This document shows positions 2,017-50,094 of a stretch of DNA of 64,000 nucleotides, piece by piece. The notes under the pieces are model-generated. The model worked only from the letters and a program-made list of their open reading frames with translations, searched no databases and was not told the DNA's origin. A program made the position numbers and the translations under genes. Every line of letters starts with the position of its first letter. Position 1 is the first letter of the stretch. This stretch comes from Escherichia coli (GTDB taxonomy: Bacteria; Pseudomonadota; Gammaproteobacteria; Enterobacterales; Enterobacteriaceae): NCBI RefSeq assembly GCF_003991155.1, contig NZ_CP031293.1; one strand, written 5' to 3'.

Positions 2017-2940
2017 TCACTCATCCCGCGCCGGACGATTTATTTTTCTGGCGCGGCGACGGGAATCCATTGAAATCAAAATCACTGATGACAGAATCAG
2101 AAGCGTTCCCAGCCAGTCCGGTAATGTGAATGTGATCCCCAGCAACAGCAAAGAGAGCAGCGCGCTACTTAATGGTTCTGCACAGCTCAAAATGCTGGCT
2201 TTTGGACCGCCAATTAATTGTGCTCCTTTCAGGTACAGACTAAATGTCAGGGACGTACCAATGACCACCAAATAAAAAAACGCCAGAATCAAACTGCCGT
2301 TAACGACAAAGTTTGTCCCTTGTCTGGCATAAAAAGGCAACAGAATCAGACCGCCGATCAGCATACTCCAGCCGACGACAGGCAACGTGCCATAGCGGGC
2401 AATTAGCGTTGAGGGATAGGTGGTATAGAATGCCGCAGCAAATGCCGAGGCAATGCCCCAGAATAACGCGGCAGGAGAGATCGATAATGACGTCGGATTA
2501 CCGTGTGTCACCAGTAAAAAAGTCCCGACCAGCGATGTCAAAATAGCGCAAAAAACCAGAATGCCCGGGCGCGATTTACGTACCAGTGAGAACCAGGCGA
2601 CGATAATCGTCGGTGAGAGGAATTGCAGCACCGTTGCCGTGGCTGCGTTCGATTTTTCGATGGTTAGCAAAAAAGTGAGCTGTACGGTTAGCGCGCCAAC
2701 CACGGAAAAAATCAGCAGACTAATGGCATCTTTGTGATTGTTAATAATAGAAAAGATTTTATCGCCATGAACAAATGACAGCGTCAGCAGAATCAAACCG
2801 GCGAATATCAAACGCGTCATAGTCAAAAACTGCGACGACATCTGGCTTTGCTCCATGATGTATTGCGCGCAGACCCCTGAACTTCCCCACAACACGGCGG
2901 CAATCAGAACGTTCAGCATCCCCTTTCTGGTGGAACCCAT
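2017..2940 (-). CDS. yicL: EamA/DMT-family inner membrane transporter YicL
   Basis: 307 aa polytopic membrane protein; position between nlpA and setC as in E. coli. Confidence 0.8.
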
Positions 2941-3050
2941 TTTTCCCTCTGCATACTGTTTTGTCGTTTATGTATGCAGGCATGATAGCAAAAATGGCGA
3001 GGATGGCTCTGTTTGCGCCACGCCGATTTTTCTTAGCCCAGACTGGTGAG

Positions 3051-4235
3051 CTAAATATCTTTAATAAACAGCAGGCAAATCATCGCAATACCCAACATCC
3101 CTATCGCCAGCCAGAACAACGCGTGGTAGCTCCAGATTTCAACCATAATTCCGTCAACAGAGCCGGCGATAATCCAGCCGACGCGTGAGGTATTTGCATA
3201 TAACGTTGTCGCAGAGCCTATTTTTTCAGGCATCAGATCCTGAAAATAAAGCATGCCGATACCACAGAGAATACCAAGGAAGATGGCATTAAGAATTTGC
3301 AATTCCAGCTCAACTGCCGGAGTCGTCGCCATGAGTACGCTGGCGTAAAAACACATTCCACTCACGATAGCAATGAGCATTAATAGCCGCTTGCCAATAC
3401 GTTTCATGTAATAGCCTGCGATTAACATCATCGGAATTTCCAGACCGGCAGCGATACCAATCATTTCTCCAGCCAGTTTATCGGTTAGATGCAGTTCATC
3501 AATAATAAATAGCGGCATATTTATCATGTAGAGATTATTCGCCGCCCACATCATTGAACAGACCACAAAAAGTAGCCGCGTATCCCGCTTCCTGTGGGTG
3601 GAGGGTAAAATTTCTATGGGTTGGGTAACGACAGGAATATTTCTTTGTATTGATGGCAAAAACAACCAGACTATCAGTCCGCAAACAACAAATGCGATGG
3701 CAGCGGTGAGATACATCACTTTAAAACTAAATCCCATTGCCAGTTCATAAGCGAGCGGTGGCCCGATAACCCAGGCAAGCGAGATCTGAGCACGTAAAAA
3801 TGTACTGAACATGACCGTCTCACGGCCTGTTCTGTCGGCGTGTTCACGGGCGAGGGCGAACATTTGCGGGTTTGCAGTGGAAGCAAAACTACTCAGAAGT
3901 ACGCCCGTTGAGAGGAGAATGAAGTAGTTGCGATTCCACGCAAAAAGCGTGCAGGCCAGCACTCCAAATAAGCAACATAGCAGGATCAGTAATTTACGGT
4001 CGCCTTGTTTATCGGAGTGCCTTGCCAGAAATTGACTGACCAGAATTCCCATAATAGCGCTACCGGTGAAGAAAAAACCTACCATTATAGGACGGGCTTT
4101 CAGTTCATCTGCGAGGAATATACTTAGGGTGGGAGTCTGGAGAGCGCCCGCAATACCCGTCAGAAAGGCGACAAGTAAAAATGCCGCGGCAGTGAGATCA
4201 AGTATTTTTGATGGAGTAGTAGCCGTTTTTTGCAT
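3051..4235 (-). CDS. setC: Sugar efflux transporter SetC (MFS)
   Basis: 394 aa MFS protein matching E. coli SetC; canonical neighbour of selC. Confidence 0.85.
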   Translation of the reverse strand: MQKTATTPSKILDLTAAAFLLVAFLTGIAGALQTPTLSIFLADELKARPIMVGFFFTGSAIMGILVSQFLARHSDKQGDRKLLILLCCLFGVLACTLFAWNRNYFILLSTGVLLSSFASTANPQMFALAREHADRTGRETVMFSTFLRAQISLAWVIGPPLAYELAMGFSFKVMYLTAAIAFVVCGLIVWLFLPSIQRNIPVVTQPIEILPSTHRKRDTRLLFVVCSMMWAANNLYMINMPLFIIDELHLTDKLAGEMIGIAAGLEIPMMLIAGYYMKRIGKRLLMLIAIVSGMCFYASVLMATTPAVELELQILNAIFLGILCGIGMLYFQDLMPEKIGSATTLYANTSRVGWIIAGSVDGIMVEIWSYHALFWLAIGMLGIAMICLLFIKDI

Positions 4236-4689
4236 TCTTCTGAATCACCGGGCGACAAAATATAACTGAGTTACAAATAAGTACCAGTCGAATGAGTATT
4301 GTATTAAGAATTTTTGAGTATCGCTGATACAACCAGAAAGCAATGCTAGCGCAATATTATAGGGCCAGCAATTGAGATTATTAGCAAAAGCATGTTAAGA
4401 GTTAATCACCGAATTTATATATTAATTATAGTAAGACAATGAGCTATTTTTGATAGTAAAAATAAAACAAATTTATTTGATATATTAAATGAACAAATTA
4501 ATCTTGATGGCAGTCTGATTATTGGTGAAGTTTACAGGTCAGTTTTTTTCGCCAGCGGTTAAAGGAATAGAATCGTCGTATAAAAAAAGGGTGTTCTGGG
4601 GCGTGTAAAACAACATCTTCACCTTAATGGCGATACAGTTGGCTGAGAGTCAGCAGGGGGGCAAATCACCTGCAAATAAACACGGCGCA

Positions 4690-4810
4690 TGCTGGCGCGA
4701 ATATCGCGGATGCGTTCGAGGACAGAAGAACCGACAGGCGGATTCTTCAGCCGCTCATCGTCCATCACAAAACCTTTGACCAGGTATTCCTGAAGCCGAT
4801 TGAATATTGA
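4690..4810 (-). pseudogene. Fragment of a RhuM-family (virulence protein RhuM-like) gene
   Basis: Minus-strand translation ...NRLQEYLVKGFVMDDERLKNPPVGSSVLERIRDIRASMRRV contains the LERIRDIRAS motif remembered from RhuM-family proteins; no intact ORF. Confidence 0.35.
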
Positions 4811-4872
4811 GCAGTAGAAAATATCTGGATTGACAGTATTACAAGGGATTGGAGAACGTCAGAAGAGGCATT

Positions 4873-4897
4873 TTGGCGGAAGATCACAGGAGTCGAA
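4873..4897. repeat. attR-like direct repeat: partial copy of selC 3' end (TTGGCGGAAGATCACAGGAGTCGAA)
   Basis: Exact 25-bp match to 49999..50023 (3' end of selC); additional AGAAGAGG shared just upstream. Confidence 0.8.
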
Positions 4898-5032
4898 TAT
4901 GAGAGTTAATGTTTTGATTTTAAATGATTAATACGTGTTGGATAAATGAGTAACCCCCATAAGAACCCCCAAATGACTTTGCGTAAGGGAATGAGGCTAA
5001 AATACACAATCGAATCAATTCTTAGAGCTTTA

Positions 5033-5878
5033 TTATGAAGGTAACACTCCCGGATAGTGTTTCGCAATAATCTCATTAAGTCTGTCAACCAGTTCTGGTT
5101 TCCTGAACGTGATGTGCGCGGAGCCCTTCTTAAAGTATCTGATGCTGAACATCTCATCTTCATAGTCCTCTTTACCCTGAACTGAGTGGATGTGATCATC
5201 CAGACGAATAGTGATGTTTTCCCGGTTGTCGGGGATCGGTTTGCCGCTGAACAGGTGTAGCATTCTTTCCAGATCGGCAAGTCGATCTGCCTGTTGCCCG
5301 GTGATAAGATGAAACCCCCACCGGTCCCACCTCACCAGGTTGTTGACGATAATTTTACTGCCAAATTTACAGGGCGAGTTGGTTTTGTAATCCCAGCCCA
5401 GTCCTCTGAAAACGTTGATCACCCCTCGCTCAAACACCTCATCCTTATTCTGGTGCAGTTGTTCAAATGTGCTCAGAATGTTCGCTTCATTGATTTTCGG
5501 AAAATTATCATATTCCAGTGACCGGTACCATGTATCACGGGCCTGTGCATCCATTAAGGAAAGCATCCCTGAACGTTGCATCAAGTTTCGCCAGATTTCA
5601 CGGTCAAGGTTCCGGGTGATGGCTTTCATTGCGGTTTCCGGTTTTTCCATCAGCCAGCAACCGCAGCGAAAATCCTGTTTCATCGCCCAGTCCAGGGCGG
5701 TTTTACCTCCAATACTTTCTGTCAGTACTGAGATTTCTGCCAGTTGCCGGATAAGTGTGTCGATTTGCAGCAGCGCACTCTTTCGTACAGCCAGAATGTG
5801 GCGGATACTGGTTGAGCAGATAACGTCCGTATGCCCGTTGACCAGTTCCGGGCGGGAGATTGTGATATCTGACATCAT
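5033..5878 (-). CDS. Conserved island-end protein, probably DUF4942 family
   Basis: 281-aa ORF at the integrase-distal island end downstream of the CbtA module; family assignment from memory. Confidence 0.55.
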   Translation of the reverse strand: MMSDITISRPELVNGHTDVICSTSIRHILAVRKSALLQIDTLIRQLAEISVLTESIGGKTALDWAMKQDFRCGCWLMEKPETAMKAITRNLDREIWRNLMQRSGMLSLMDAQARDTWYRSLEYDNFPKINEANILSTFEQLHQNKDEVFERGVINVFRGLGWDYKTNSPCKFGSKIIVNNLVRWDRWGFHLITGQQADRLADLERMLHLFSGKPIPDNRENITIRLDDHIHSVQGKEDYEDEMFSIRYFKKGSAHITFRKPELVDRLNEIIAKHYPGVLPS

Positions 5879-5890
5879 CGTTTTTCCTTT

Positions 5891-5930
5891 TGGTTTATAA
5901 ACGAAAACGCCAGCCCTGTTCAGGCTGGCG
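5891..5930 (-). terminator. Rho-independent terminator-like hairpin
   Basis: Stem CGCCAGCC/GGCTGGCG (5908-5930) followed on the minus strand by TTTTCGTTT. Confidence 0.5.
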
Positions 5931-5959
5931 TCAGTGGAATGAAGTCTGGTGAGTGAGAT

Positions 5960-6202
5960 TCACCGGTTCTGGTGCAGAAGCTGCAGTTGGCGCAGGGTAT
6001 GGATATCCTCCCTCGCCTGTTCAATACAGGACAACAGTGCTGCCGAATCCGTTTTATCCTCATTGTTGTCAAAGATAATTCCGGATTCGCAGTCGATATT
6101 GTCCTGCAGCCACGCAATCAGAATATCCAGTGCGGTTTCCGTGGTTAATGATTTCATGTTGCTCCTGGTTACCAGTTGAAAGTGGGTAAACCCGGCAGGC
6201 AT
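5960..6202 (-). CDS. Small YeeW-like protein
   Basis: 80-aa ORF (probable start at internal Met, ~6157) downstream of the cbtA-like toxin; resembles YeeW family. Confidence 0.4.
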   Translation of the reverse strand: MPAGFTHFQLVTRSNMKSLTTETALDILIAWLQDNIDCESGIIFDNNEDKTDSAALLSCIEQAREDIHTLRQLQLLHQNR

Positions 6203-7836: not shown

Positions 7837-7898
7837 GATGTGATACCTCTGAAGACAGAAGATAAAAGTGAAAACAGGTGTGATGTGGTTGTGACGGG

Positions 7899-9134: not shown

Positions 9135-9953
9135 TCAGCGCAGGCTCTCCAGTAGCGTTTCTGCCATCACCCACAATGCGCGATTGAGCTTAATGTCGGT
9201 GTCGATGCTGTGAATGGCACGGGTGTGGATACGTTTTCCTCTGGCACTGCGACCGGAAATTCCGCCTTTCAGCATATTCTCCTGGATGGTCTGATAAGTA
9301 CTCCACAGGTCCTTACCGTAATCCTCCCGGCGTCGTGGCGTCAGAATGTCGGTAGTGGTGACGGGCTGATGTTCATCACCATAACGGTAAGTCAGCGCCG
9401 CCTGTGCCAGCGCCTGGCGTGCCGGTGGCGGCAGGACCAGCGACTGCATGGCATCACGCTTTTCCTCAATCCGGTCAAACACGCCCACCACTTCGTAAGC
9501 ACCTTCTATGACCCTGTCCACCACGTTTCCCCGGTGTGGCACCCGGACTTCTCCCAGCGACTGACCGCAGACCAGGCCATTGGTACAAATGGCACGAAAA
9601 TATCCGGGTAACATCTGGTAGCTGGATGAACCGTCATGGGAGTTGAGCAGAATAATTTCAGGCACATGCTGACCGGTTATCTGTCCGGCCCGCCGCAGAC
9701 GCAGCATATGTTTGGTATATTCCCGGCGGCTCTGGTCGCGCACACGGGTCTGGCAGGCGAAGAACGGCTGAAAGCCTTCCCGCTGCAGATTTTCCAGGAC
9801 GGTGATGGTGGGAATGTACGCATACCGTTCACTGCGGGAGGTGTGCCGGTCTTCTCCAAAAATACTCGGGACGTGGTACATCAGTTCTTCGCGTGTCAGT
9901 GGGCGCTCCCGACGGATCTGATTTACATGACCAAAACGACTGGCTAATTGCAT
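9135..9953 (-). CDS. DUF932-family protein (YfjQ-like)
   Basis: 272 aa; size, position and sequence resemble YfjQ of CP4-57. Confidence 0.65.
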   Translation of the reverse strand: MQLASRFGHVNQIRRERPLTREELMYHVPSIFGEDRHTSRSERYAYIPTITVLENLQREGFQPFFACQTRVRDQSRREYTKHMLRLRRAGQITGQHVPEIILLNSHDGSSSYQMLPGYFRAICTNGLVCGQSLGEVRVPHRGNVVDRVIEGAYEVVGVFDRIEEKRDAMQSLVLPPPARQALAQAALTYRYGDEHQPVTTTDILTPRRREDYGKDLWSTYQTIQENMLKGGISGRSARGKRIHTRAIHSIDTDIKLNRALWVMAETLLESLR

Positions 9954-9979
9954 ACTTTGCTCCTTATGAATGAATTAGC

Positions 9980-10021
9980 GGTATAAACGAAAAGGCCGCG
10001 TCTCCCGGAGAAGACGCGGCC
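9980..10021 (-). terminator. Rho-independent terminator-like hairpin
   Basis: Stem GGCCGCGTCT/AGACGCGGCC followed on the minus strand by TTTTCGTTTATA; same TATAAACGAAAA motif as the hairpin at 5891-5930. Confidence 0.5.
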
Positions 10022-10042
10022 TGATGGATGAAATGAAGACGT

Positions 10043-10276
10043 TTATTGCCTGAGAATTCCCTCACTGGCGAGGTACGAATTTAGCTGTTTTCCGGCGTCA
10101 GACTCAAAATTCCAGCACCGCCAGCGTAGTTGCCCTTCGGCATTGCGGATAACCAGCAGGAAATGCGTTCCATGGTCATCTTCAATAAGCACATTGCGGT
10201 AAGCTGTTGTGGCAGCCATTGCCTGTTTGCGTGAGAAAGGGCCTTCGGGCAATAAAACAGGGTGACAGTCCGACAT
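10043..10276 (-). CDS. Small hypothetical protein (77 aa)
   Basis: ORF sits in the operon-like minus-strand array and is followed by a terminator hairpin. Confidence 0.4.
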
Positions 10277-10281
10277 ACCGG

Positions 10282-10959
10282 CTATTTTCCGATAAATTCA
10301 ACGCTGGCACTGGTGGCATTACCGTCAGCACCAACCGTGACGGTCACTTTGTCGTACGCACGGTCTTCAGGATTGAATACTTCAAACTCAACCTTATTGC
10401 CTTTTACTTCGTAAGAGCCAAAATCAGCGGTTTCTGTTGTTTCCTCGTCATATTCCCGGGCGTATGCCTGCCGGGCAGCCTGCAGGACGGAGTCTTTATT
10501 AATAGTGGTCGTCTGTTTCGGGGAAAAACCGGCAAGTGATGTGACAAATTTCGGACAGACCTTCAGCATATCACCGCGGGTGAATTCCATTCGTACACCA
10601 AATGCCTGTAAAACGGACACATCACGCTCTGCTATGGAGTGAACGGCTTTTTTGACCATTTCCGGCGCCTGTCCGATTTCCACCTCAACAGCCCTGAATC
10701 CCGTCTGCTGATTACACATTTGTGATGTGGGGATCAGGTTACCGTTAATACTGATACGGCTGCCCAGGAGCGTCTGTACGCCATTCGGGCATCCCTGCAT
10801 CAGGCCGGTAATACCAATCGTGCCATTTTTCAGCATTACCAGCGCCTGACCATCTTCCGTCATGGTCTGACACCAGCCGTTTTTGACAGCCCAGTTGCCG
10901 GCGGAGGCGGAGAATGATGCCACAGTGAACAGCAGGGGAAAAAGAGCTCTGGTATTCAT
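10282..10959 (-). CDS. Secreted hypothetical protein (signal peptide, ~225 aa)
   Basis: ORF 10282..11064 trimmed to the internal Met preceding [20 protein letters not shown] (typical signal peptide). Confidence 0.5.
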
Positions 10960-40334: not shown

Positions 40335-41147
40335 ATGTCGGATACCGTCATAATTTCGTTGGCACCTGTGGCCGCAGACTGCACCAGAGTCATACCCGAA
40401 GAATTGGCGCAGGAAATTTTGGCTTGCGTTGAATATGGAGCAGCAATTGTTCATTTACACGTTCGTGATAAGCAAGGCAAGTTAACGCCAGATACAACCG
40501 ATTTCCAGTCAACCATTGATCTCGTCAGACATCAATCAGACTTAATTATTCAGGCTTCTACGGGCGGAGTCTCTGCCATGTCAATAGCCGAGCGTTGCGC
40601 GCCTCTGGACTGCCCTGGCGTTGAAATGGCGTCGCTGAATGTAGGGTCGGTGAACCTTGGTGATGCCGTCTACGCTAATCCAACACCGGATGTCGAATAT
40701 TGTTCACAGCAAATTACCGCGCGTAGTATTGTTCCTGAATTTGAAGTGTTTGAAATTGGAATGGTTAATAATATTTTAACCCTCAATGAAAAGATAAAAT
40801 TCAGAAACCCCATGTTATTTAATATTGTACTTGGTCATAGAGGAAGTTCTCCGGCGACAATAGATGCATTAATTGCGATGCGCAGTATGATCCCGCGAGA
40901 TGCATTATGGGGTATTACTCACTTTGGCAGAAAGAATTTTGATGTTATTGCTGCTGCGGTAGCTATGGGAGCTAGCGAGGTCAGAATTGGTTTTGAAGAT
41001 AGTTATTATTTAAGTGCAGAGGAGATGGCGGAACAAAATTATCAGCAAGTTAAAAAACTCGCCAGACTTATTCGTAGTATGGATAAACAAGTGGCCTCAC
41101 CGGAAATTGCCCGACGGATATTAAATATCCCAATCCGGCAGCAATGA
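40335..41147 (+). CDS. Beta-keto acid cleavage enzyme (BKACE/DUF849, 3-keto-5-aminohexanoate cleavage enzyme family)
   Basis: 270 aa; …AAIVHLHVRDKQGK… resembles the BKACE metal-binding motif. Confidence 0.6.
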   Translation: MSDTVIISLAPVAADCTRVIPEELAQEILACVEYGAAIVHLHVRDKQGKLTPDTTDFQSTIDLVRHQSDLIIQASTGGVSAMSIAERCAPLDCPGVEMASLNVGSVNLGDAVYANPTPDVEYCSQQITARSIVPEFEVFEIGMVNNILTLNEKIKFRNPMLFNIVLGHRGSSPATIDALIAMRSMIPRDALWGITHFGRKNFDVIAAAVAMGASEVRIGFEDSYYLSAEEMAEQNYQQVKKLARLIRSMDKQVASPEIARRILNIPIRQQ

Positions 41148-41168
41148 CGACAGACAGGACATTTTACT

Positions 41169-42479
41169 ATGACTATAACAACCCTAATACAAAAAGCAGG
41201 ACTTACAATCTGTATAGCTGGCGGTGTACTCGCGGCAACAGGCGGGTTGATGCAATCCGCTGTGCTCTGGCAACCTGGATTGGTGATGCTTACTGCAGGC
41301 TTTGCCCTCGGTGCTGGTTACTGGCCGATACTTCGAAGTTATCAATTCACGTTATGGATTATCGCAGGTTTCGTGGCTGCGATGACCTGGTCGATGGATT
41401 TGATTGTCTGGGGCGGGTTTAACATTACTCACAAATGGATCGTGTTTTTAGTCATTCAGGCAACGATGTTCAGTATGGGTACCAAACTGACGATTCAGGA
41501 TTTTATCGATGTTGCCAAAATGCCATGGGCGGTGTTTATTGGCACCTTCTGCCACTTTGTGATTATGCCGTTGCTGGGGCTAACCATTACGCTGTTATTT
41601 GATTTTCCGCCAGAAGTTGCGGTGGGGATCCTGCTCATAGGTGCCTGCCCTAGCGGTTTATCATCAACTGTTATGGTTTATATCGCTAACGCGAACCTCG
41701 CGCTGGCGGTATCAATCGCCGCAGTTTCTACGCTGGCAGCAACGGTTATGACGCCGTTGTGGGTAAATTTGCTGGCTGGCTCCATGATTGACATCCAACT
41801 TACCGCAATGGTTATGGACGTGGTGAAAATTGTCCTTATACCAATTGGTGCAGCAATTTTGCATGACTACCTGAAAACGTACGCTGGAGTTCGAGGTCGA
41901 CGAACCGTGCAGCTTCTCGCCGGGATCTGCGCCCTGTGGCTAATTTACATGAGCTCTGGTGGTTGGGACTATCTCTTTGACAACGCCAGTGCAGACGTAC
42001 AAATGTATGCCGTGGTACTGAACTTTGTCACGGGTGGCATTGTATGGGCGTTGTTCTATAACTGGCTGTACAGTCGCGTGGAAGGCATTCAAAAGATTAT
42101 GCCAACCATCTCTATGATTGGGATCATCTTCTTTACCACCACCGCTGCGGCAGCTGGTCGTGATAACCTGTTGCAGGTTGGTTTCCTGCTTTGTTTCGCC
42201 ATGTTGTTGCATAACCTTGGCGGTTTCCTGATTGGCTATCTGATGAGTCGCTGGATATTCCGCATGGACGAACAATCGTCCCGTACCGTAGCCTTTGAAG
42301 TGGGATTGCAAAACGGAGGTATGGCGTCAGGTCTGGCAGCGGCAATGGGCAAACTGGCTACAGTTGGCCTTGCCTCTGCAGTCATGACACCTCTCGGCAA
42401 TGTGAGTGGTTCGCTGTTGGCAAACTACTGGCGCAAAAAAGACGCTCGTAAAGCACAGACTGCGAATAAAGACAAATAG
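41169..42479 (+). CDS. BASS-fold (bile acid:Na+ symporter-like) membrane transporter
   Basis: 436-aa polytopic protein; …GACPSGLSSTVMVYIANANLALAVSIAAVSTLAA… resembles BASS crossover motifs. Confidence 0.6.
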   Translation: MTITTLIQKAGLTICIAGGVLAATGGLMQSAVLWQPGLVMLTAGFALGAGYWPILRSYQFTLWIIAGFVAAMTWSMDLIVWGGFNITHKWIVFLVIQATMFSMGTKLTIQDFIDVAKMPWAVFIGTFCHFVIMPLLGLTITLLFDFPPEVAVGILLIGACPSGLSSTVMVYIANANLALAVSIAAVSTLAATVMTPLWVNLLAGSMIDIQLTAMVMDVVKIVLIPIGAAILHDYLKTYAGVRGRRTVQLLAGICALWLIYMSSGGWDYLFDNASADVQMYAVVLNFVTGGIVWALFYNWLYSRVEGIQKIMPTISMIGIIFFTTTAAAAGRDNLLQVGFLLCFAMLLHNLGGFLIGYLMSRWIFRMDEQSSRTVAFEVGLQNGGMASGLAAAMGKLATVGLASAVMTPLGNVSGSLLANYWRKKDARKAQTANKDK

Positions 42480-42514
42480 TCTGCCTGTTGTAACCTTTCA
42501 AAAGGAAACTCAAT

Positions 42515-42934
42515 ATGACGACATTGACCCTGAAACAAGCATTGCTTGCAGTAGAGTATGCGCTTGATCTTGCAGTGCAACAATATGCTGGCCGTCCTTT
42601 AAGTGTGGCAGTATGCGATGTTAATGGTGAATTGCTGAGCTTTGCCCGCATGGATAGAGCCAAACTGTTAACTATTGAATTAACGCAGCGTAAAGCACGA
42701 ACCAGTAGTCGTCTGGGCTGTACGACAGCAGCATTCTTACAGCGTCTACAAAAAGAGCAACTTGATATCAGCTATTTTGGAGATCCCCGGTTTACCGCAT
42801 TACCAGGAGGGATCCCTATTCTGGTTAAAGGAAAATGCATTGGTGCTGTTGCTGTGGGGGGATTATCCGCACGAGAAGATCATGATGCGGCACAGGCTGT
42901 CGCAGATAAACTGCTTGAGGAGATGACCAAATGA
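42515..42934 (+). CDS. GlcG/HbpS-like protein (DUF336)
   Basis: 139 aa; …GGIPILVKGKCIGAVAVGG… typical of GlcG-like proteins. Confidence 0.65.
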   Translation: MTTLTLKQALLAVEYALDLAVQQYAGRPLSVAVCDVNGELLSFARMDRAKLLTIELTQRKARTSSRLGCTTAAFLQRLQKEQLDISYFGDPRFTALPGGIPILVKGKCIGAVAVGGLSAREDHDAAQAVADKLLEEMTK

Positions 42935-43581
42935 AAAAAATAGCCATGCTTCACACCAGTTCAGCCACGCTTGCGGTGATGCAACAACTGATAGGCGATA
43001 TCATGCCTGAGGCTGAAGTGATGCATCTGGTTGAGGAGTCTATGATTAAGCAGGTGATGAAAGCGGGCGGTGTTACGCCAGATATCGCCGCACGGATCGC
43101 TGATTACATACGGATCGCTGAAAAAGCCGACTGCGATATTTTCATTACCGCTTGTTCATCAATTGGTACTGCTGTCGAACAGTGTCAATTTATGACTTCA
43201 GTACAACTGGCACGGATTGACTGTGCGATGGTGGATGAAGCAATCAACAAAGGGGAACACATTGCTGTGCTGGCAACGGTGGCCACAACGCTGAAACCGA
43301 CGCTTGATTTTGTCCGGCGAAAAGTTCAGGAAAGTGGAAAACAGCGGATTATTACACCTGTTTTAATGGAAGAAGCCTTCCATGCGTTATTGAATGGTGA
43401 TATGGGAACGCATGACCGCATTGTGAGTGAAGGATTACAAAAGGCCTTTGGGCAGGCAGATGTTATTATGTTAGCGCAGGCATCGATGGCACGGGTGCTG
43501 CAAAATATGCCTGAGCCTCCGGTTCCGGTATTAACATCGCCAGAAAGCGGTATTCGCTGGTTGAAAACATTCGCGAGTTAA
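42931..43581 (+). CDS. Asp/Glu/hydantoin racemase-family enzyme
   Basis: 216 aa; start overlaps GlcG stop; conserved Cys-containing ACSS segment. Confidence 0.6.
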   Translation: MKKIAMLHTSSATLAVMQQLIGDIMPEAEVMHLVEESMIKQVMKAGGVTPDIAARIADYIRIAEKADCDIFITACSSIGTAVEQCQFMTSVQLARIDCAMVDEAINKGEHIAVLATVATTLKPTLDFVRRKVQESGKQRIITPVLMEEAFHALLNGDMGTHDRIVSEGLQKAFGQADVIMLAQASMARVLQNMPEPPVPVLTSPESGIRWLKTFAS

Positions 43582-44101
43582 GTCAGGTATAGTTTCTATA
43601 TTAAAGACGTTTACACATAATGGTGTACAGGCCCATTCAGAAACGGAACTGGGAATTTATTAACGGATAATCCGGAAACGTATTAAATGGCAGAAGGTAA
43701 CTACTTTCTGCCATTTCACAGACAGGATGTACATATTAATCGGCCATGATGGTTGACATAAAAAATGCATCGGCAGTGATGTGGCAAGTTTTTCCCGGAC
43801 AATGTTTTTCTTCATCCCACTTGCAGAAAATATATAATATTATATTTTATATAACATTTTCTAACTCATTGAATACACTTGCAAATCTTCTCATTCTTAC
43901 TTAGAAATATTATTAATTTTAACGTTCTTTGTTGAATGTTTGTTTGGTTACAGCCATCTAATTTTTTAAATGCACAGTATCTGTGGATAACTTTGCGTAA
44001 ACACTGGGGACAGAGCTCGTTGAACCAGAGAAAGCACGCATGAAAACAAAATACTCATTCTTTAACCATTCTGTATAAGATCAGATGTCAGATCTGCTCA
44101 A

Positions 44102-44157
44102 TTCCGCTTTCCCGGTCACTGACTCGCTACGCTCGATCGTTCGGTTGCGGCGAGCGG
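44102..44157. other. ColE1/pBR322-type primosome assembly site (pas/ssi)-like sequence
   Basis: TTCCGCTTTCCCGGTCACTGACTCGCTACGCTCGATCGTTCGGTTGCGGCGAGCGG is ~90% identical to the remembered pBR322 segment TTCCGCTTCCTCGCTCACTGACTCGCTGCGCTCGGTCGTTCGGCTGCGGCGAGCGG. Confidence 0.4.
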
Positions 44158-44455
44158 AGTCTCCTTTCTCAAAATCAGGCTTCGTGCATCTGGTCACAAA
44201 CCCGTATATCAATCATCATTGATGAGAAATTATCTTTATGAGGGCGTTTTTTTGGTTTCAGTTTTGCACGGAACCAGGAGATTTTTGGGAGTTGTTTTAT
44301 GTATGTTGTAAATAAAATTTTAATATTGACATCTACTGTACGTGCATAGAGTACGCCGGTGACCAACGTCAGCATTCCACTGTTCCAGTAACTAATTAAC
44401 GTAAGTGAAGTTATCGAGGAAGCAATACTGGATGGAGAAGTCGTCCTTGAGGTAT

Positions 44456-44737
44456 TCACTTTCCTTTCGTTCTGCCCATTAGTGGACAGCTAACTAGTGG
44501 CAGGACATCGGAGTACAGCACCTTCCCGTTGTTATTTATCAGCACGGCAGCTTTCTGGTTATTGACGAGCACAGTTTTCACGCCGCCGCCAAAGTTGTGG
44601 AAGACTCGCACCAGTGACTCATGGGTATGTTCAGCATCCTGTATGGGGCAGCAAAGAGATAGAAGCGACGTGAGAACCCCCTGCGTATTAGTCGCGAAGT
44701 TAATGCAGCATCGTTGTCTGACCAGTACCCCAGTCAT
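44456..44737 (-). pseudogene. IS21-family IstA transposase fragment
   Basis: …DAEHTHESLVRVFHNFGGGVKTVLVNNQKAAVLINNNGKV… matches the IstA segment …DAEHTYESLVRAFRYFGGCVKTVLVDNQKAAVLKNNNGKV…. Confidence 0.55.
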
Positions 44738-44952
44738 GCTGGAGCTGGTAATCCGGCTGAGTTTTGAAGCGAACCGTTTTCTTCGATTTCCGTCTGGGAA
44801 GTAATCAGACTCAGCACGGACAAAAATTGCAGCGCCCGGATGGCACGGGTAATGGTCAGATTACCGGATGCGGATTAGGTGCCGCGTAGTGAAGCGCGCC
44901 GGATTCAGAGTCGCTAGTATGGTCATACAGCGAAGGAAAGCCGCCAATTTTT

Positions 44953-45225
44953 GTGCCGGACGTGGAATATACAGCGAATGCTGATGTAAAAGGCGCTCGT
45001 AATATTTTAGCTGCGGGACATACTGTGCTTGCCAGGGAAGGGATGGTGCAGTCAGACCACCCGTTGAAGCGAAATGAACCTGAACCATACGACAACCTGA
45101 AAGTAGCAGGAATCCACGCCCTGAAGGACGTGGAGGAAGTCAAATCGATGGTAGGTTGTAGGTTTATGGCAACATCTGCTTCATTAGATACATGTCGATA
45201 TACAGAACATATATCACATTTATGA
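44953..45225 (+). pseudogene. 3' fragment of an IS200/IS605-family tnpB (RNA-guided nuclease) gene
   Basis: …ANADVKGARNILAAGHTVLAREGMVQ… resembles the conserved TnpB C-terminus; no N-terminal part upstream. Confidence 0.4.
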
Positions 45226-45903
45226 ATTTTCTTTTATCCTGCTATTTTGGGGTTTATTGTGAAAGTAACTTTCAAGAACAGGCAGATAGTACCAGGATTC
45301 AGGATGTTTTTTCAGGAATTCATTTAAAAATGATTGCATTGTTAAATATAAATCTTTGTTATTTCCTTTATGTATAAAATCATAAATCCACACGTAATTA
45401 CTGTAATTAGAATCAAAGTATGATGCAATAAAATACGCATTAGCACCTGCGCGTCTTACAATATATTCCCAACCACCGTGCAACCATGCTTTCTTATTCA
45501 GTAGACAAGCTTCTCTTACAGAACCATAGTTTTCGCTACTATACACTGAGGGTATATCTGGTAATATAATCAAATTAGCTCCGTTTTTTACAAGCTTAAT
45601 CATGGCCTTTATTTCTGTAATGCCATTTTTTTCGAAAACAGTAATCTGATGCCCAAGTCCAGAAAGTGAATGTATTAATTCCAACTCATTGAGACCATTT
45701 ACAGAACTTCTATAAAAAATAAAATGTGAGTTAGATTTATATGAAAGTAGAATTTTATGAATGGCTGTCCAGTATTCACCAGAATGTAAAACTACAAACA
45801 CAGAATTATTAAGTGTTTTATGTAATGCATCCAAAAAACAGTCTTCATATATAAATTTTGTACGGTGTGCATACTCATGAAGGGTATTCATAGACACAAT
45901 CAT
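45220..45903 (-). CDS. Orphan hypothetical protein, 227 aa, AT-rich (weak resemblance to LpxL/LPLAT-type acyltransferases)
   Basis: Uninterrupted ORF in low-GC DNA; family assignment uncertain. Confidence 0.5.
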   Translation of the reverse strand: MIVSMNTLHEYAHRTKFIYEDCFLDALHKTLNNSVFVVLHSGEYWTAIHKILLSYKSNSHFIFYRSSVNGLNELELIHSLSGLGHQITVFEKNGITEIKAMIKLVKNGANLIILPDIPSVYSSENYGSVREACLLNKKAWLHGGWEYIVRRAGANAYFIASYFDSNYSNYVWIYDFIHKGNNKDLYLTMQSFLNEFLKKHPESWYYLPVLESYFHNKPQNSRIKENS

Positions 45904-45983
45904 TTTAGCCCTATTACTGACAATAATGATAATTGATATTCTGAGCGTATCGAAAATAAGTCCGAATTATCAGAAGGTTTATT

Positions 45984-46756
45984 ATGAAAATACTCATTGC
46001 AGGGGCAACCGGAAGTATTGGTCTTCATGTCGTGAATACCGCTATTGAAATGGGTCATCAGCCCGTGGCGCTGGTCAGAAATAAACGCAAAGTAAAATCT
46101 CTTCCTCGTGGAACAGATGTTTTTTACGGCGATGTTTCAATGCCGGAAACACTCACCGAATTGCCGAAAGATATTGATGCCATCATCTTCACTCTCGGTT
46201 CTGATGGCCAGGGGCGTATTGGTGCCAGAGCGATCGATTACGGAGGAGTGCGTAATATTTTGCGAATATTCAGGGATACACCTGTTCGTATCAGCTAATG
46301 ACCACGATTGGCGTGACTGAGCGGCTCAGCACTTGGAATCAACGCACTGAGGTTCATGACAGGAAAAGACGTGCCGAGCGTCTGGTCAGGGCCAGCGGTC
46401 ATCCCTATATTATCGTCCGGCCCGGCTGGTTTGATTACAACAATGATGATGAACACAGGATCGTTATGCTTCAGGGGGATCGTCGCCATGCAGGAACACC
46501 GGAAGATGGTGTGATATCCCGGGAGCAAATCGCCCAGGTTCTGGTCAGTGCCCTGACCAACGACGAGGCAAAAAATAAAACGTTCGAGCTGGTGGCTGAA
46601 CGAGGTGAAGCACCACAGGATCTTACCCCACTGTTTGCAGAACTGCAGACTGATGATGCACAAAAAAATGATGGGGTTCTGGACATAGACAATATGCAGC
46701 TGAGAGAAGAACCGGAGTGCATTATTAACGAGCTGAACCTGTATTCAAAAAATTAA
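45984..46756 (+). pseudogene. NAD(P)-binding SDR/NmrA-like oxidoreductase gene split into two ORFs (104 aa + 152 aa)
   Basis: N-terminal Rossmann motif GATGSIGLHVV in ORF1; ORF2 continues the same fold in a different frame; ORFs overlap at TAATG (46296-46300). Confidence 0.5.
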
Positions 46757-46897
46757 ACAATCTACAACCCTGACAATTTTGTCATATAGCGGTCAGCCTC
46801 ATGACAGTTTAAGTCTGTATATTTACATACACAAACGGGGATAGTTCCCTTGATACGAATCCAGTTTTAAACATAGATTTTAAAAGAGGTATTAAAT

Positions 46898-47149
46898 ATG
46901 AAAGCATTACTTATTACTACATTGGTCATGGGGTTTATTTCAGTGAATGCCGCATCTGCAGCTCAGGAAATTAACCATGCAGATGGGAAAGAAAAGATAG
47001 GTGTAGTCTCAGCCAGCAATGCCTATACGCTTGATGAATTATCGAATACGCTTTCTCGTAAGGCTGATGAACAAGGAGCAACATCGTTCAAAATTCTGTC
47101 AACCACGGGGAATAACCGGCTGCACGGGGTTGCTGAAATCTATAAGTAA
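46898..47149 (+). CDS. DUF1471 (YdgH/BhsA/McbA-family) periplasmic stress protein
   Basis: 83 aa with signal peptide and the family's C-terminal …FKI.S..G.N.L.G.AEIYK motif. Confidence 0.7.
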   Translation: MKALLITTLVMGFISVNAASAAQEINHADGKEKIGVVSASNAYTLDELSNTLSRKADEQGATSFKILSTTGNNRLHGVAEIYK

Positions 47150-47205
47150 ATCATTAGTATCCTGAGCAGGATGTGTCTTAACCCTCTTATAGCGAGCGTC
47201 GATTT

Positions 47206-47541
47206 ATGTTTAGAACAGAAGACATCATCGATGAGATAACCCAATGGATTGATTCAAATTTACATAAGCCGCTGAAGATAGAGGATGTTGCTGCGCGGGC
47301 AGGATACTCGAGGTGGCATCTTCAGCGGATTTTTGTGCAGGTGAGAGAAATTAGCCTTGGGAAGTACATAAGAGATACGAAACTTAGACTTGCAGCAAAA
47401 GATCTTATCGCGACTAATGAGCCAGTGATGGTTATCGCCTTTAAATATGGATTCGATTCACAACAAACTTTTACTCGGATTTTCTTTAAAAAATATAAAT
47501 TGCCACCATTGAAATATAGGGTAATGACTCCAACTTATTGA
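47206..47541 (+). CDS. MarA/SoxS-like small AraC-family regulator, C-terminus replaced by IS1 insertion
   Basis: 111-aa ORF with two HTH motifs; its last 7 codons lie inside IS1. Confidence 0.6.
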
Positions 47542-48038
47542 TAGTGTTTTATGTTCAGATAATGCCCGATGACTTTGTCATGCAGCTCCACCGATTTTGA
47601 AAACGACAGCGACTTCCGTCCCAGCCGTGCCAGGTGCTGCCTCAGATTCAGGTTATGCCGCTCAATTCGCTGCGTATATCGCTTGCTGATTACGTGCAGC
47701 TTTCCCTTCAGGCGGGATTCATACAGCGGCCAGCCATCCGTCATCCATATCACCACGTCAAAGGGTGACAGCAGGCTCATAAGACGCCCCAGCGTCGCCA
47801 TAGTGCGTTCACCGAATACGTGCGCAACAACCGTCTTCCGGAGCCTGTCATACGCGTAAAACAGCCAGCGCTGGCGCGATTTAGCCCCGACGTATCCCCA
47901 CTGTTCGTCCATTTCCGCGCAGACGATGACGTCACTGCCCGGCTGTATGCGCGAGGTTACCGACTGCGGCCTGAGTTTTTTAAATGGCGGAAAATCGTGT
48001 TGAGGCCAACGCCCATAATGCGGGCGGTTGCCCGGCAT
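47535..48038 (-). CDS. insB: IS1 transposase InsB
   Basis: 167 aa matching IS1 InsB. Confidence 0.9.
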
Positions 48039-48232
48039 CCAACGCCATTCATGGCCATATCAATGATTTTCTGGTGCGTACCGGGTTGAGAAGCGGTGTA
48101 AGTGAACTGCAGTTGCCATGTTTTACGGCAATGAGAGCAGAGATAGCGCTGATGTCCGGCGGTGCTTTTGCCGTTACGCACCACTCCGTCAGTAGCTGAA
48201 CAGGAGGGACAGCTGATAGAAACAGAAGCCAC
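47957..48232 (-). CDS. insA: IS1 InsA
   Basis: 91 aa matching IS1 InsA (zinc finger CPSC…CSHC). Confidence 0.9.
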
Positions 48233-48522: not shown

Positions 48523-49704
48523 TCAGATCTGCTCAGAAAGTGAATCAATGTAGTCAGCATACCACTGCATCATTTCACGGCGACCATCCAGATACTGGGC
48601 ATGATTATAGGTACCTCTGATAGCGTTTTTATCCATATGAGCTAACTGCATTTCAATCCAGGCAGAATTAAAGCCCTGTTCGTGCAGAATTGTACTCATG
48701 GTGTGTCTGAAACCGTGCCCTGTGAGTCTTCCCTTATATCCTAGTAATTCAATGACTTGGTTTATGCTTTCCTTACTAATTGGTTTGCGAGGATCGTTCC
48801 TACCGATAAAGACCAGAGGATGATGTTTTGAGATTGGTTCAAGTTGCTTAAATAGCGCAATGACCTGCTCAGAGAGCGGCACAATATGAGGTCGCTTCAT
48901 CTTCATTACTTCTGCCGGGATCTCCCATAATTTTGTCTCAAAATCGATATCCTCCCAGCGTGCGAAACGCAATTCTTGAGTTCGTACACCAGTTAGCATA
49001 ATGATTTGAGTGGCTGTCTTAGTGATAATACTTCCGGTATAACCCGCCAGATCATTGAGGAAGTGGGGAAGTTCATTAGCAGTAAGAAAGGGAAAATGTA
49101 CTTTTTTCGGTGTAGCTAAAGCACTGGCAAGATCGGGAGCAGGGTTGTAGTTAGCCCGACCAGTAACAATTGCATAGCGGAACACCTCTCCACAGCGCTG
49201 GCGGACCTTACGCATTTTCTCCAGAGCTCCACGTTTTTCCATTTTACGCAATGCTTCCAGTAACTCCATTGGTTTGATTTCAGCAATAGGGCGTTTGCCA
49301 ATATAGGGAAAAATATCTTTTTCAAAGGTATCAATGATTTCATCACGATAGCGTAATGACCACCGATCGGCTTTTGACTGATGCCATTCTCGAGCAACGG
49401 CCTCAAATGTGTTTTTCAAACTCATTTGCAGCGCGATTTTTTCTTCTTTTTTTGTCTCACCCGGATCGCATCCTGCAGCGAGGATTTTCCTAGCTTCACT
49501 GCGTTTTTCGCGAGCGTCGGCTAGAGTTACATCGGGGTATACGCCAATAGAAAGCATCTTTTCTTTGCCAGCAAAGCGGTACTTCATACGCCAATATTTA
49601 GAACCATTAGTGTTAATGAGTAGATACATACCGCCACCATCAGACAGCTTATAGGGCTTTTCTTTTGGTTTTGCGGTTTTCACTTTAATATCAGTTAACG
49701 CCAT
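48523..49704 (-). CDS. P4-type tyrosine integrase (site-specific recombinase)
   Basis: 393 aa; catalytic HGFRHT and C-terminal Tyr region; immediately adjacent to selC. Confidence 0.9.
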   Translation of the reverse strand: MALTDIKVKTAKPKEKPYKLSDGGGMYLLINTNGSKYWRMKYRFAGKEKMLSIGVYPDVTLADAREKRSEARKILAAGCDPGETKKEEKIALQMSLKNTFEAVAREWHQSKADRWSLRYRDEIIDTFEKDIFPYIGKRPIAEIKPMELLEALRKMEKRGALEKMRKVRQRCGEVFRYAIVTGRANYNPAPDLASALATPKKVHFPFLTANELPHFLNDLAGYTGSIITKTATQIIMLTGVRTQELRFARWEDIDFETKLWEIPAEVMKMKRPHIVPLSEQVIALFKQLEPISKHHPLVFIGRNDPRKPISKESINQVIELLGYKGRLTGHGFRHTMSTILHEQGFNSAWIEMQLAHMDKNAIRGTYNHAQYLDGRREMMQWYADYIDSLSEQI

Positions 49705-49998
49705 GACATCCTCCGGATTTTGATGAATCCATGTTCCTGGACTTCTGCCAGTAACTGACCTGATATCCCCAATGCACCCCCATGTATAACAAAGATGTTG
49801 TTAAAAGCCGTTGTTATATATCACATTTTTTCCATTATGGGGGTGCTGATATTTTAAGAGAAAATAGTACCCCCTAAAGTACCCCCAAAAGCAACTTGAT
49901 ATGGGGTGATACCGGTTGACCTCGGGATACAAAGAAATCCTGATATACAATAGGTTATATGGAGATTGTTGATATAAGGAGAGTTCAGAAGAGGTTAA

Positions 49999-50023
49999 TT
50001 GGCGGAAGATCACAGGAGTCGAA
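49999..50023. repeat. attL core: 25-bp direct repeat overlapping the 3' end of selC
   Basis: Identical to 4873..4897. Confidence 0.8.
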
Positions 50024-50094
50024 CCTGCCCGGGACCGCTGGCGGCCCCAACTGGATTTGAAGTCCAGCCGCCTCACCGGAGACGACGATCTTCC
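50000..50094 (-). tRNA. selC: tRNA-Sec (selenocysteine tRNA)
   Basis: Reverse complement matches the 95-nt E. coli selC sequence GGAAGATCGTCGTCTCCGGTGAGGCGGCTGGACTTCAAATCCAGTTGGGGCCGCCAGCGGTCCCGGGCAGGTTCGACTCCTGTGATCTTCCGCCA. Confidence 0.95.

Follow-up and report, generated by a model that had tools for sequence, protein, structure and literature searches.

The 227-aa open reading frame (ORF) at positions 45220–45903, on the minus strand of the 64,000-nt stretch of Escherichia coli chromosome analysed here (the window), is a 5′-truncated, chimeric gene fragment. It is the relic of an acyltransferase gene from a peptide exporter operon, fused to a start codon from foreign DNA, and is very probably non-functional. 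The ORF lies within the tRNA-Sec (selC) island and is the kind of remnant that a decaying island ordinarily leaves behind. The parent family is more interesting than the relic, since it is rare and linked to exporters of double-glycine (GG) peptides in every case examined, across Salmonella, Yersinia, ETEC plasmids, Pantoea, Aeromonas and Pseudoxanthomonas.

The basic description of the ORF in an earlier note holds: it exists as first listed there, starts with ATG and encodes 227 aa. PGAP annotates a shorter version (45220–45891, minus strand, 223 aa) as the hypothetical protein WP_176398622.1. The ORF has a low GC content (0.30–0.34 along its length, compared with about 0.47–0.50 in the flanks); by our own count, the acyltransferase-derived remnant has a GC content of 0.312, compared with 0.474 for the whole window. 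No confident family assignment had been made from the sequence, and the database models bear this out, as the ORF matches both Pfam and NCBIfam only below threshold. It scores 19.8 bits (E = 5e-4) against PF03279 (Lip_A_acyltrans), which has a gathering score of 22.3 bits, and 26.9 bits against the NCBIfam lauroyl acyltransferase model, far under the cut-off of 248. As a single query against the PDB sequences, it returns only noise. The Pfam match covers profile positions 98–289 of 295, and its start at position 98 is a first hint that the N-terminal third of the domain is absent from the window ORF.

The nearest protein relatives of the ORF are 76–82% identical to it. In Yersinia enterocolitica they are 294–299 aa long, and the relatives in E. 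coli, called at 253–256 aa, reach 296 aa when read from an upstream ATG, while more distant relatives range from 269 to 358 aa. In the alignment, the intact proteins extend about 75 residues further towards the N-terminus than the window ORF, whose likeness to them begins only at codon 10–11. At the DNA level, the window resembles the intact E. coli copy over 45209–45896 only, which corresponds to 8795–8108 of contig L006, where the intact ORF starts at 7872. The acyltransferase-derived segment (45209–45877, minus strand) comprises codons 86–296, plus 11 nt past the stop codon, of a 296-codon gene whose product is predicted to have the LpxM/PatA fold. Its DNA is 86% identical to the intact copy on ETEC plasmids and 78% identical to the Yersinia-type copy.

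Codons 1–85 of the 296 are missing from the relic. This amounts to 29% of the protein and includes the hydrophobic N-terminal anchor and all of the N-terminal helices, those at residues 2–83 of an AlphaFold2 model falling within the missing part. The hydrophobic N-terminal segment reaches a KD19 value of up to 1.96 in the intact proteins, compared with a maximum of 1.04 in the window fragment, and the combination of a membrane anchor with a domain of about 300 aa is found in the intact relatives and not in the window ORF. The fragment does keep H40, D116 and W204, which are invariant in the family. The view of the ORF as an intact 227-aa orphan gene is contradicted by the length of its homologues, the loss of codons 1–85 and the borrowed start codon. 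The earlier note had itself named evidence for a gene fragment as grounds for giving up its reading, and a truncated 5′ end joined to a foreign start codon is evidence of that kind.

Automatic annotation also calls the start of the intact acyltransferase too short, at 186, 253 and 256 aa (L009, P0003 and P0004). In L009, which comes from NZ_CP024274.1, the intact gene is found at 9722–10612 of the contig, encodes 296 aa and begins 4 nt after the stop codon of the exporter gene. The length of the intact E. coli ORF and its start 4 nt past the stop of the preceding gene indicate that gene callers under-call the start.

The first nine codons of the window ORF (MIVSMNTLH) come from a LysR/SDR locus, and acyltransferase sequence begins at E10/Y11, corresponding to codons 86–296 of the intact gene. 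Other E. coli strains have an intact gene for an SDR-family oxidoreductase with a divergent LysR gene, and the similarity of the window to these loci begins at the 5′ end of the ORF. By four-way alignment and base-by-base comparison, the recombination junction was placed at 45872–45877 (minus strand), a 6-bp microhomology, TGAGTA, that is common to the acyltransferase gene and the LysR-SDR intergenic region. On the left of this sequence, which reads TACTCA on the other strand, the window agrees with the acyltransferase gene, and on the right with the LysR/SDR loci of LF82 and FDAARGOS_1373. Between the ATG and the microhomology, the window agrees with the LysR-SDR intergenic region at 26 of 27 bases. 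The SDR-proximal part of this divergent intergenic region occupies 45878–45983 and supplies the ATG at 45903 along with codons 1–9. The LysR gene is absent from the window, and the acyltransferase relic stands in its place. The recombination cost the LysR/SDR locus its LysR gene, and it cost the acyltransferase gene its 5′ 29% along with all of the DNA farther upstream.

Two other readings of the 5′ end were considered and rejected. The apparent continuation of acyltransferase homology into the 5′ end with a 1-nt indel is an alignment artefact, and comparison with the LysR/SDR loci gives a clean junction instead. Nor do codons 1–9 represent the N-terminus of LysR, whose translation begins with MLKENF; they derive from an intergenic mini-ORF. 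In intact LysR/SDR loci, the donor stretch is this mini-ORF of 18 codons, located 12 nt upstream of the LysR start. The mini-ORF (MIVSMNTLHEYAMKGMPP, followed by a stop codon) is conserved in L019 (2458–2514, minus strand) and at the same position in L020, and could be a leader peptide or a mere coincidence.

The fragment stems from a mobile, AT-rich operon of four genes, intact copies of which are found in Yersinia and on ETEC plasmids. Illegitimate recombination at the 6-bp microhomology fused codon 86 of the terminal acyltransferase gene of this operon to the LysR/SDR intergenic region, and no more than the 211 codons at the 3′ end of the gene are left in the window. An ATG nine codons upstream of the join happened to be in frame, giving rise to the 227-codon ORF. 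The window ORF thereby shows how an ORF that looks plausible, with a start codon borrowed from elsewhere, can arise through illegitimate recombination.

The acyltransferase family is small. An exhaustive profile search among 1.84 billion sequences yielded only 23 representatives at E ≤ 1e-3, and a word-indexed profile search added one further named member, from Pantoea. The named members come from Salmonella enterica, Y. enterocolitica, E. coli, Pantoea, Aeromonas veronii and Pseudoxanthomonas, and nearly all are annotated as “hypothetical protein”. In an alignment of 24 sequences, the residues H116, D192 and W280 (numbering of the intact Yersinia-type protein, P0007) are invariant, and the family motifs are H-x-G-[DE]-Y-W and F-x-D-L-P. 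PF03279 is matched at E < 0.01 by nine of the 24 members (best, 8.6e-7), and the intact Yersinia and E. coli proteins score 12.9–20.8 bits, again below the gathering score.

The weak resemblance to LpxL/LPLAT-type acyltransferases that had been noticed in the sequence proved to be genuine. Against the PDB sequences, the profile made from the 24 members finds PatA (E = 1.4e-6) and Acinetobacter baumannii LpxM (E = 1.6e-4), the latter over nearly the full length (family positions 19–292 against LpxM 19–284). A confident AlphaFold2 model of P0007 (pLDDT 89.8, pTM 0.89), the kind of structure prediction that the earlier note had proposed as a check, was compared with the PDB by Foldseek: all 14 matches at E ≤ 1e-3 are LpxM or PatA, with E values from 5.6e-10 to 2.9e-7 and TM scores of 0.58–0.68, and the next match is noise (E = 7e-3, TM 0.23).

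LpxM and LpxL (MsbB/HtrB) are the secondary acyltransferases of lipid A and, like PatA, belong to PF03279. LpxM of A. baumannii (5KN7, 5KNK) matches the fold of the model nearly in full (E = 5.6e-10, TM 0.58–0.61, 283 columns), and the intact family shares with LpxM/LpxL a length of about 300 aa and a hydrophobic N-terminal anchor, although the sequence identity is only 13–14%. PatA (5F2T, 5OCE) is the best profile match, over a C-terminal FGR-x-A...G...LA...P-x-W region, with a TM score of 0.64–0.68 relative to PatA, and its HSGNWD sequence aligns with the His region of the family, HtGdYw. PatA, an enzyme of Actinobacteria, differs from the exporter-linked, gammaproteobacterial family in being a mycobacterial phosphatidylinositol-mannoside acyltransferase with a glycolipid acceptor and a canonical HX4D motif. 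H116 of the family aligns with H122 of LpxM and with the His of HSGNWD in PatA, and the invariant D192 aligns with the Asp of the LpxM PDHTP motif. The canonical HX4(D/E) motif is not present: position +5 from the His, E127 in LpxM, is Trp in most members, and the Asp or Glu is usually found at +3. The replacement of the acid at +5 by Trp makes the catalytic motif non-canonical. The profile matches, the fold match of the model and the aligned His and Asp together mark the family as a divergent branch within the LpxL/LpxM/PatA fold of acyltransferases. A member with 26% identity is found on the unannotated 206-kb S. enterica plasmid CP053317.1 (188338–189090), and the 289-aa protein cluster to which it belongs also occurs in serovars Ball and Minnesota.

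In Yersinia-type contigs (L002–L005) and in E. coli contigs and plasmids (L006–L009), the acyltransferase is the last gene of a four-gene unit that consists of a GG-leader peptide, an AprE/HlyD-type membrane fusion protein (MFP), a Peptidase_C39-ABC transporter and the acyltransferase itself. On the ETEC plasmid NZ_CP024274.1, the intact operon spans 122983–127517. A C39-ABC exporter, with matches to Peptidase_C39, ABC_membrane and ABC_tran, and an AprE/HlyD-type MFP are found beside the acyltransferase in L002–L008, L010–L012, L014–L016 and L018; of the short contigs, L013 has the exporter only and L017 has the MFP and the 5′ part of the exporter. The same linkage is seen even for relatives that are only 15–24% identical (P0011, P0012, P0014, P0016, P0017, P0021, P0024 and P0025), with genes that are usually 1–4 nt apart or overlap by 4–14 nt. 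A TolC-like OEP follows the unit in two loci, and the gene order is permuted in one.

The first gene of the unit is an ORF of 60–68 aa with a double-glycine leader that ends in ELDMEACKEISGG and is followed by FLGALCLGMALAGGAIIGTGLGMTVSG. In L002 (6343–6525), ELDMEACKEISGG is followed by FLGAL, and leaders ending in [VI]RGG are also present in L006, L010 (two), L011 (two), L015 and L016, with the cargo peptide genes at 822–1148 in L010, 8067–8367 in L011, 2994–3119 in L015 and 394–507 in L016. The mature cores are short, about 22–35 aa, mostly hydrophobic and rich in Gly and Ala with GxxxG-like spacing; one of the two L011 peptides is charged and amphipathic instead. Phe opens the core after GG in five of seven different peptides. 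A Phe in this position in all cores was considered and rejected: it is found in L002, L006, L010 and L011, and L015 (GPGLLF after GG) and L016 (IFAPS after GG) differ. Tandem pairs of peptide genes occur in several of the exporter-acyltransferase loci. A GG-leader ORF was sought in L013, L014, L017 and L018, three of which are short contigs, and none was found. In the E. coli and Yersinia units, a search for a small conserved ORF besides the peptide gene found none, and there is accordingly no adjacent small membrane immunity gene.

The GC content of the operon is 0.313 and 0.316, compared with 0.312 for the relic, and because the two are equal, the low GC of the relic is taken to be inherited from the parent operon. 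The suspicion of horizontal acquisition in the earlier note agrees with this, since low GC and an IS-rich island do point to acquired DNA. In the Yersinia-type contig L002, the DNA ahead of the operon (2172–5257 and 5683–5997) encodes a transporter of the ShlB type and a short protein with a TPS domain, a two-partner secretion pair that looks truncated, and also includes a TnpB-like relic. In the window, too, a TnpB relic (44921–45084) adjoins the remnant.

The intact operon is present in seven of 5,426 complete E. coli genomes, in all cases on plasmids of about 130–150 kb. These are ETEC plasmids of the virulence type, and their hosts include strains of serotypes O169:H41 and O27:H7. The relic, on the other hand, is always chromosomal, and the window from 44000 to 47200 is 100% identical in 21 of the 5,426 genomes; AR Bank #0349 and 2016C-3878 are examples of strains that carry it.

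The intact family is most likely an acyltransferase coupled to a peptide exporter. Its genes lie in a peptide exporter operon, unlike those of LpxM and LpxL, which belong to lipopolysaccharide biosynthesis, and this exporter context argues against a housekeeping role in lipid A synthesis; the copy in the window is, in addition, truncated. HlyC is the lysine acyltransferase of RTX toxins, and RaxST is a sulfotransferase that accompanies RaxAB; both are co-encoded with type I exporters. The HlyC/HlyA/HlyBD and RaxST/RaxX/RaxAB systems and CdiC (PMC8510554) offer an analogy only, that of a modifying enzyme encoded together with the export of a toxin: HlyC and CdiC have another fold, that of the TAAT family, RaxST is a sulfotransferase, and no homology to the exporter-linked family was detected. 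By this analogy, acylation of the exported hydrophobic peptide is the favoured putative role, and self-protection by lipid modification would be the main alternative. A more specific proposal is put forward tentatively and is rather less likely than not to be correct as a whole: the membrane-anchored acyltransferase of LpxM/PatA fold may be an undescribed fourth component of some gammaproteobacterial type I exporters of GG peptides, translationally coupled to the C39-ABC transporter, that either lipidates the short hydrophobic cargo peptide or remodels the lipids of the producer as a form of immunity.

Judged by its genes, the parent operon appears to be a class II microcin-like unit. None of its other genes is left in the window, where exporter, MFP and peptide genes were sought without result between 43001 and 47500. 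Class II microcin and double-glycine export clusters have been reviewed (PMC10233263, PMC12219008). Like the cvaA-cvaB-cvaC-cvi cluster of MccV, the parent operon comprises a GG-leader peptide, an MFP, a C39 ABC exporter (PCAT) and sometimes a TolC-like OEP. A small membrane immunity gene beside the peptide gene is typical of class II microcins (PMC12219008), whereas the parent operon has no such adjacent gene and carries a conserved LpxM-fold acyltransferase instead. Its cores also differ in being very short, 22–31 aa in the clearest cases, and mostly very hydrophobic. The Cdz system of Caulobacter (PMC5380434) resembles the operon, by description, in its glycine-rich, hydrophobic GG-leader peptides and its C39-ABC exporter with a HlyD-type adaptor; it differs in having a dedicated membrane immunity protein, CdzI (PMC5380434), and the peptides of the exporter-acyltransferase loci are shorter. 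The word “acyltransferase” does not occur in the Cdz paper (PMC5380434). Literature searches, which took in the Cdz paper and recent surveys of class II microcins, brought up no description of either the family or the operon; as the coverage was incomplete, this is weak evidence of novelty. Peptide acylation or enzymatic immunity, if true, would represent a new logic of tailoring or immunity for class II microcin-like systems, and if the cargo is lipidated, acylated microcin-like peptides would form a class of their own.

In the relic, the anchor, the N-terminal helical layer, the exporter and the peptide partners are all lost, which makes the 227-aa product most likely inactive debris, whether or not the leftover promoter region on the LysR side drives its transcription. 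The main competing explanation is that the ORF has been domesticated as a functional orphan gene, which would encode either a soluble acyltransferase core without an anchor or an orphan immunity factor against a competitor's hydrophobic peptide, transcribed from the leftover LysR-side promoter. This is improbable, although several features are in keeping with it. The frame is open over all 227 codons, the three invariant residues are kept, and the ATG is preceded by regulatory DNA inherited from the LysR-SDR intergenic region, which may carry the LysR promoter and could drive transcription of the relic. However, a promoter scan gave six promoter-like matches, compared with 5.0 expected, which is chance level, and a one-in-three chance accounts for the in-frame ATG. 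Since the intact E. coli and Yersinia operons have no separate small immunity gene, the acyltransferase could itself be the immunity determinant, and orphan immunity genes are commonly retained. Against this, 29% of the protein is gone from the relic. The missing part contains the membrane anchor and every N-terminal helix, and the solved structures related to this fold are of membrane-associated proteins. The relic is also surrounded by pseudogenes and IS fragments. The dN/dS ratio is 0.09–0.17 between the relic and the intact copies and 0.13 between intact copies; such low values are equally expected from recent truncation and from constraint, and because the 21 relic copies are identical, there is no signal of selection within the relic.

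The orphan reading that was first proposed, taken as a fast-evolving but complete gene of some 227 aa whose likeness to the LPLAT family is due to chance, is very unlikely. The single-sequence Pfam match below the gathering threshold and the RefSeq label of hypothetical protein are what such a gene would give, but they are outweighed by the 76–82%-identical homologues of 294–299 aa with some 75 more N-terminal residues, the precise junction to foreign DNA at codon 10, and the profile and fold evidence for homology to LpxM and PatA. Least probable of all is that the reading frame arose by chance in non-coding, AT-rich DNA. Although AT-rich DNA with few GC-rich codons in a region full of debris might suggest it, such DNA is rich in stop codons and a frame of 227 codons is not expected there, and the segment shares 86% identity with a gene that several genera have conserved, at the low dN/dS ratio given above. 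As the truncated remnant of an exporter-linked acyltransferase gene, WP_176398622.1 is better annotated as a chimeric pseudogene fragment than as a hypothetical protein.

The setting of the ORF among IS21 and IS605 remnants and an SDR pseudogene was read correctly from the sequence and matches the RefSeq annotation of the 100%-identical E. coli chromosomes. Downstream of the relic, mobile-element debris at 44395–45084 (positions transferred from PGAP's annotation of the identical DNA) includes fragments of an IS21-family transposase, IncFII RepA and TnpB/InsQ of the IS605 type. A plasmid origin of the flanking debris is not supported, as PLSDB gives only short matches of about 78% identity to window positions 43600–45215; the PGAP label of the small IncFII RepA fragment is the only hint of such an origin.

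On the other side of the relic, the SDR-family oxidoreductase pseudogene (45984–46756, plus strand) is frameshifted near 46298 and split into the ORFs 45984–46298 and 46298–46756. Intact versions of 774–783 nt are present in 272 other E. coli genomes at 85–92% identity, and in FDAARGOS_1373, the intact SDR gene is accompanied by the same DUF1471 and HTH neighbours. A copy of IS1 (insA/insB-type ORFs, 47535–48232) is inserted at the 3′ end of a small HTH/AraC-like gene (47206–47541). In AR Bank #0349, which has an otherwise identical island, the HTH gene is 357 nt long and no IS1 lies between it and the integrase. The island boundary (48523–50094, minus strand) is formed by a tyrosine integrase gene (48523–49704) and tRNA-Sec (50000–50094).

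Upstream in the island, at 40335–43581, is an intact-looking catabolic cluster. It encodes a 3-oxo-tetronate kinase, an aldolase, a DeoR regulator and a hydroxypyruvate isomerase-like protein, together with a 3-keto-5-aminohexanoate cleavage-like protein, a transporter of the bile acid:sodium symporter family, a GlcG-like protein and an Asp/Glu racemase-like protein.
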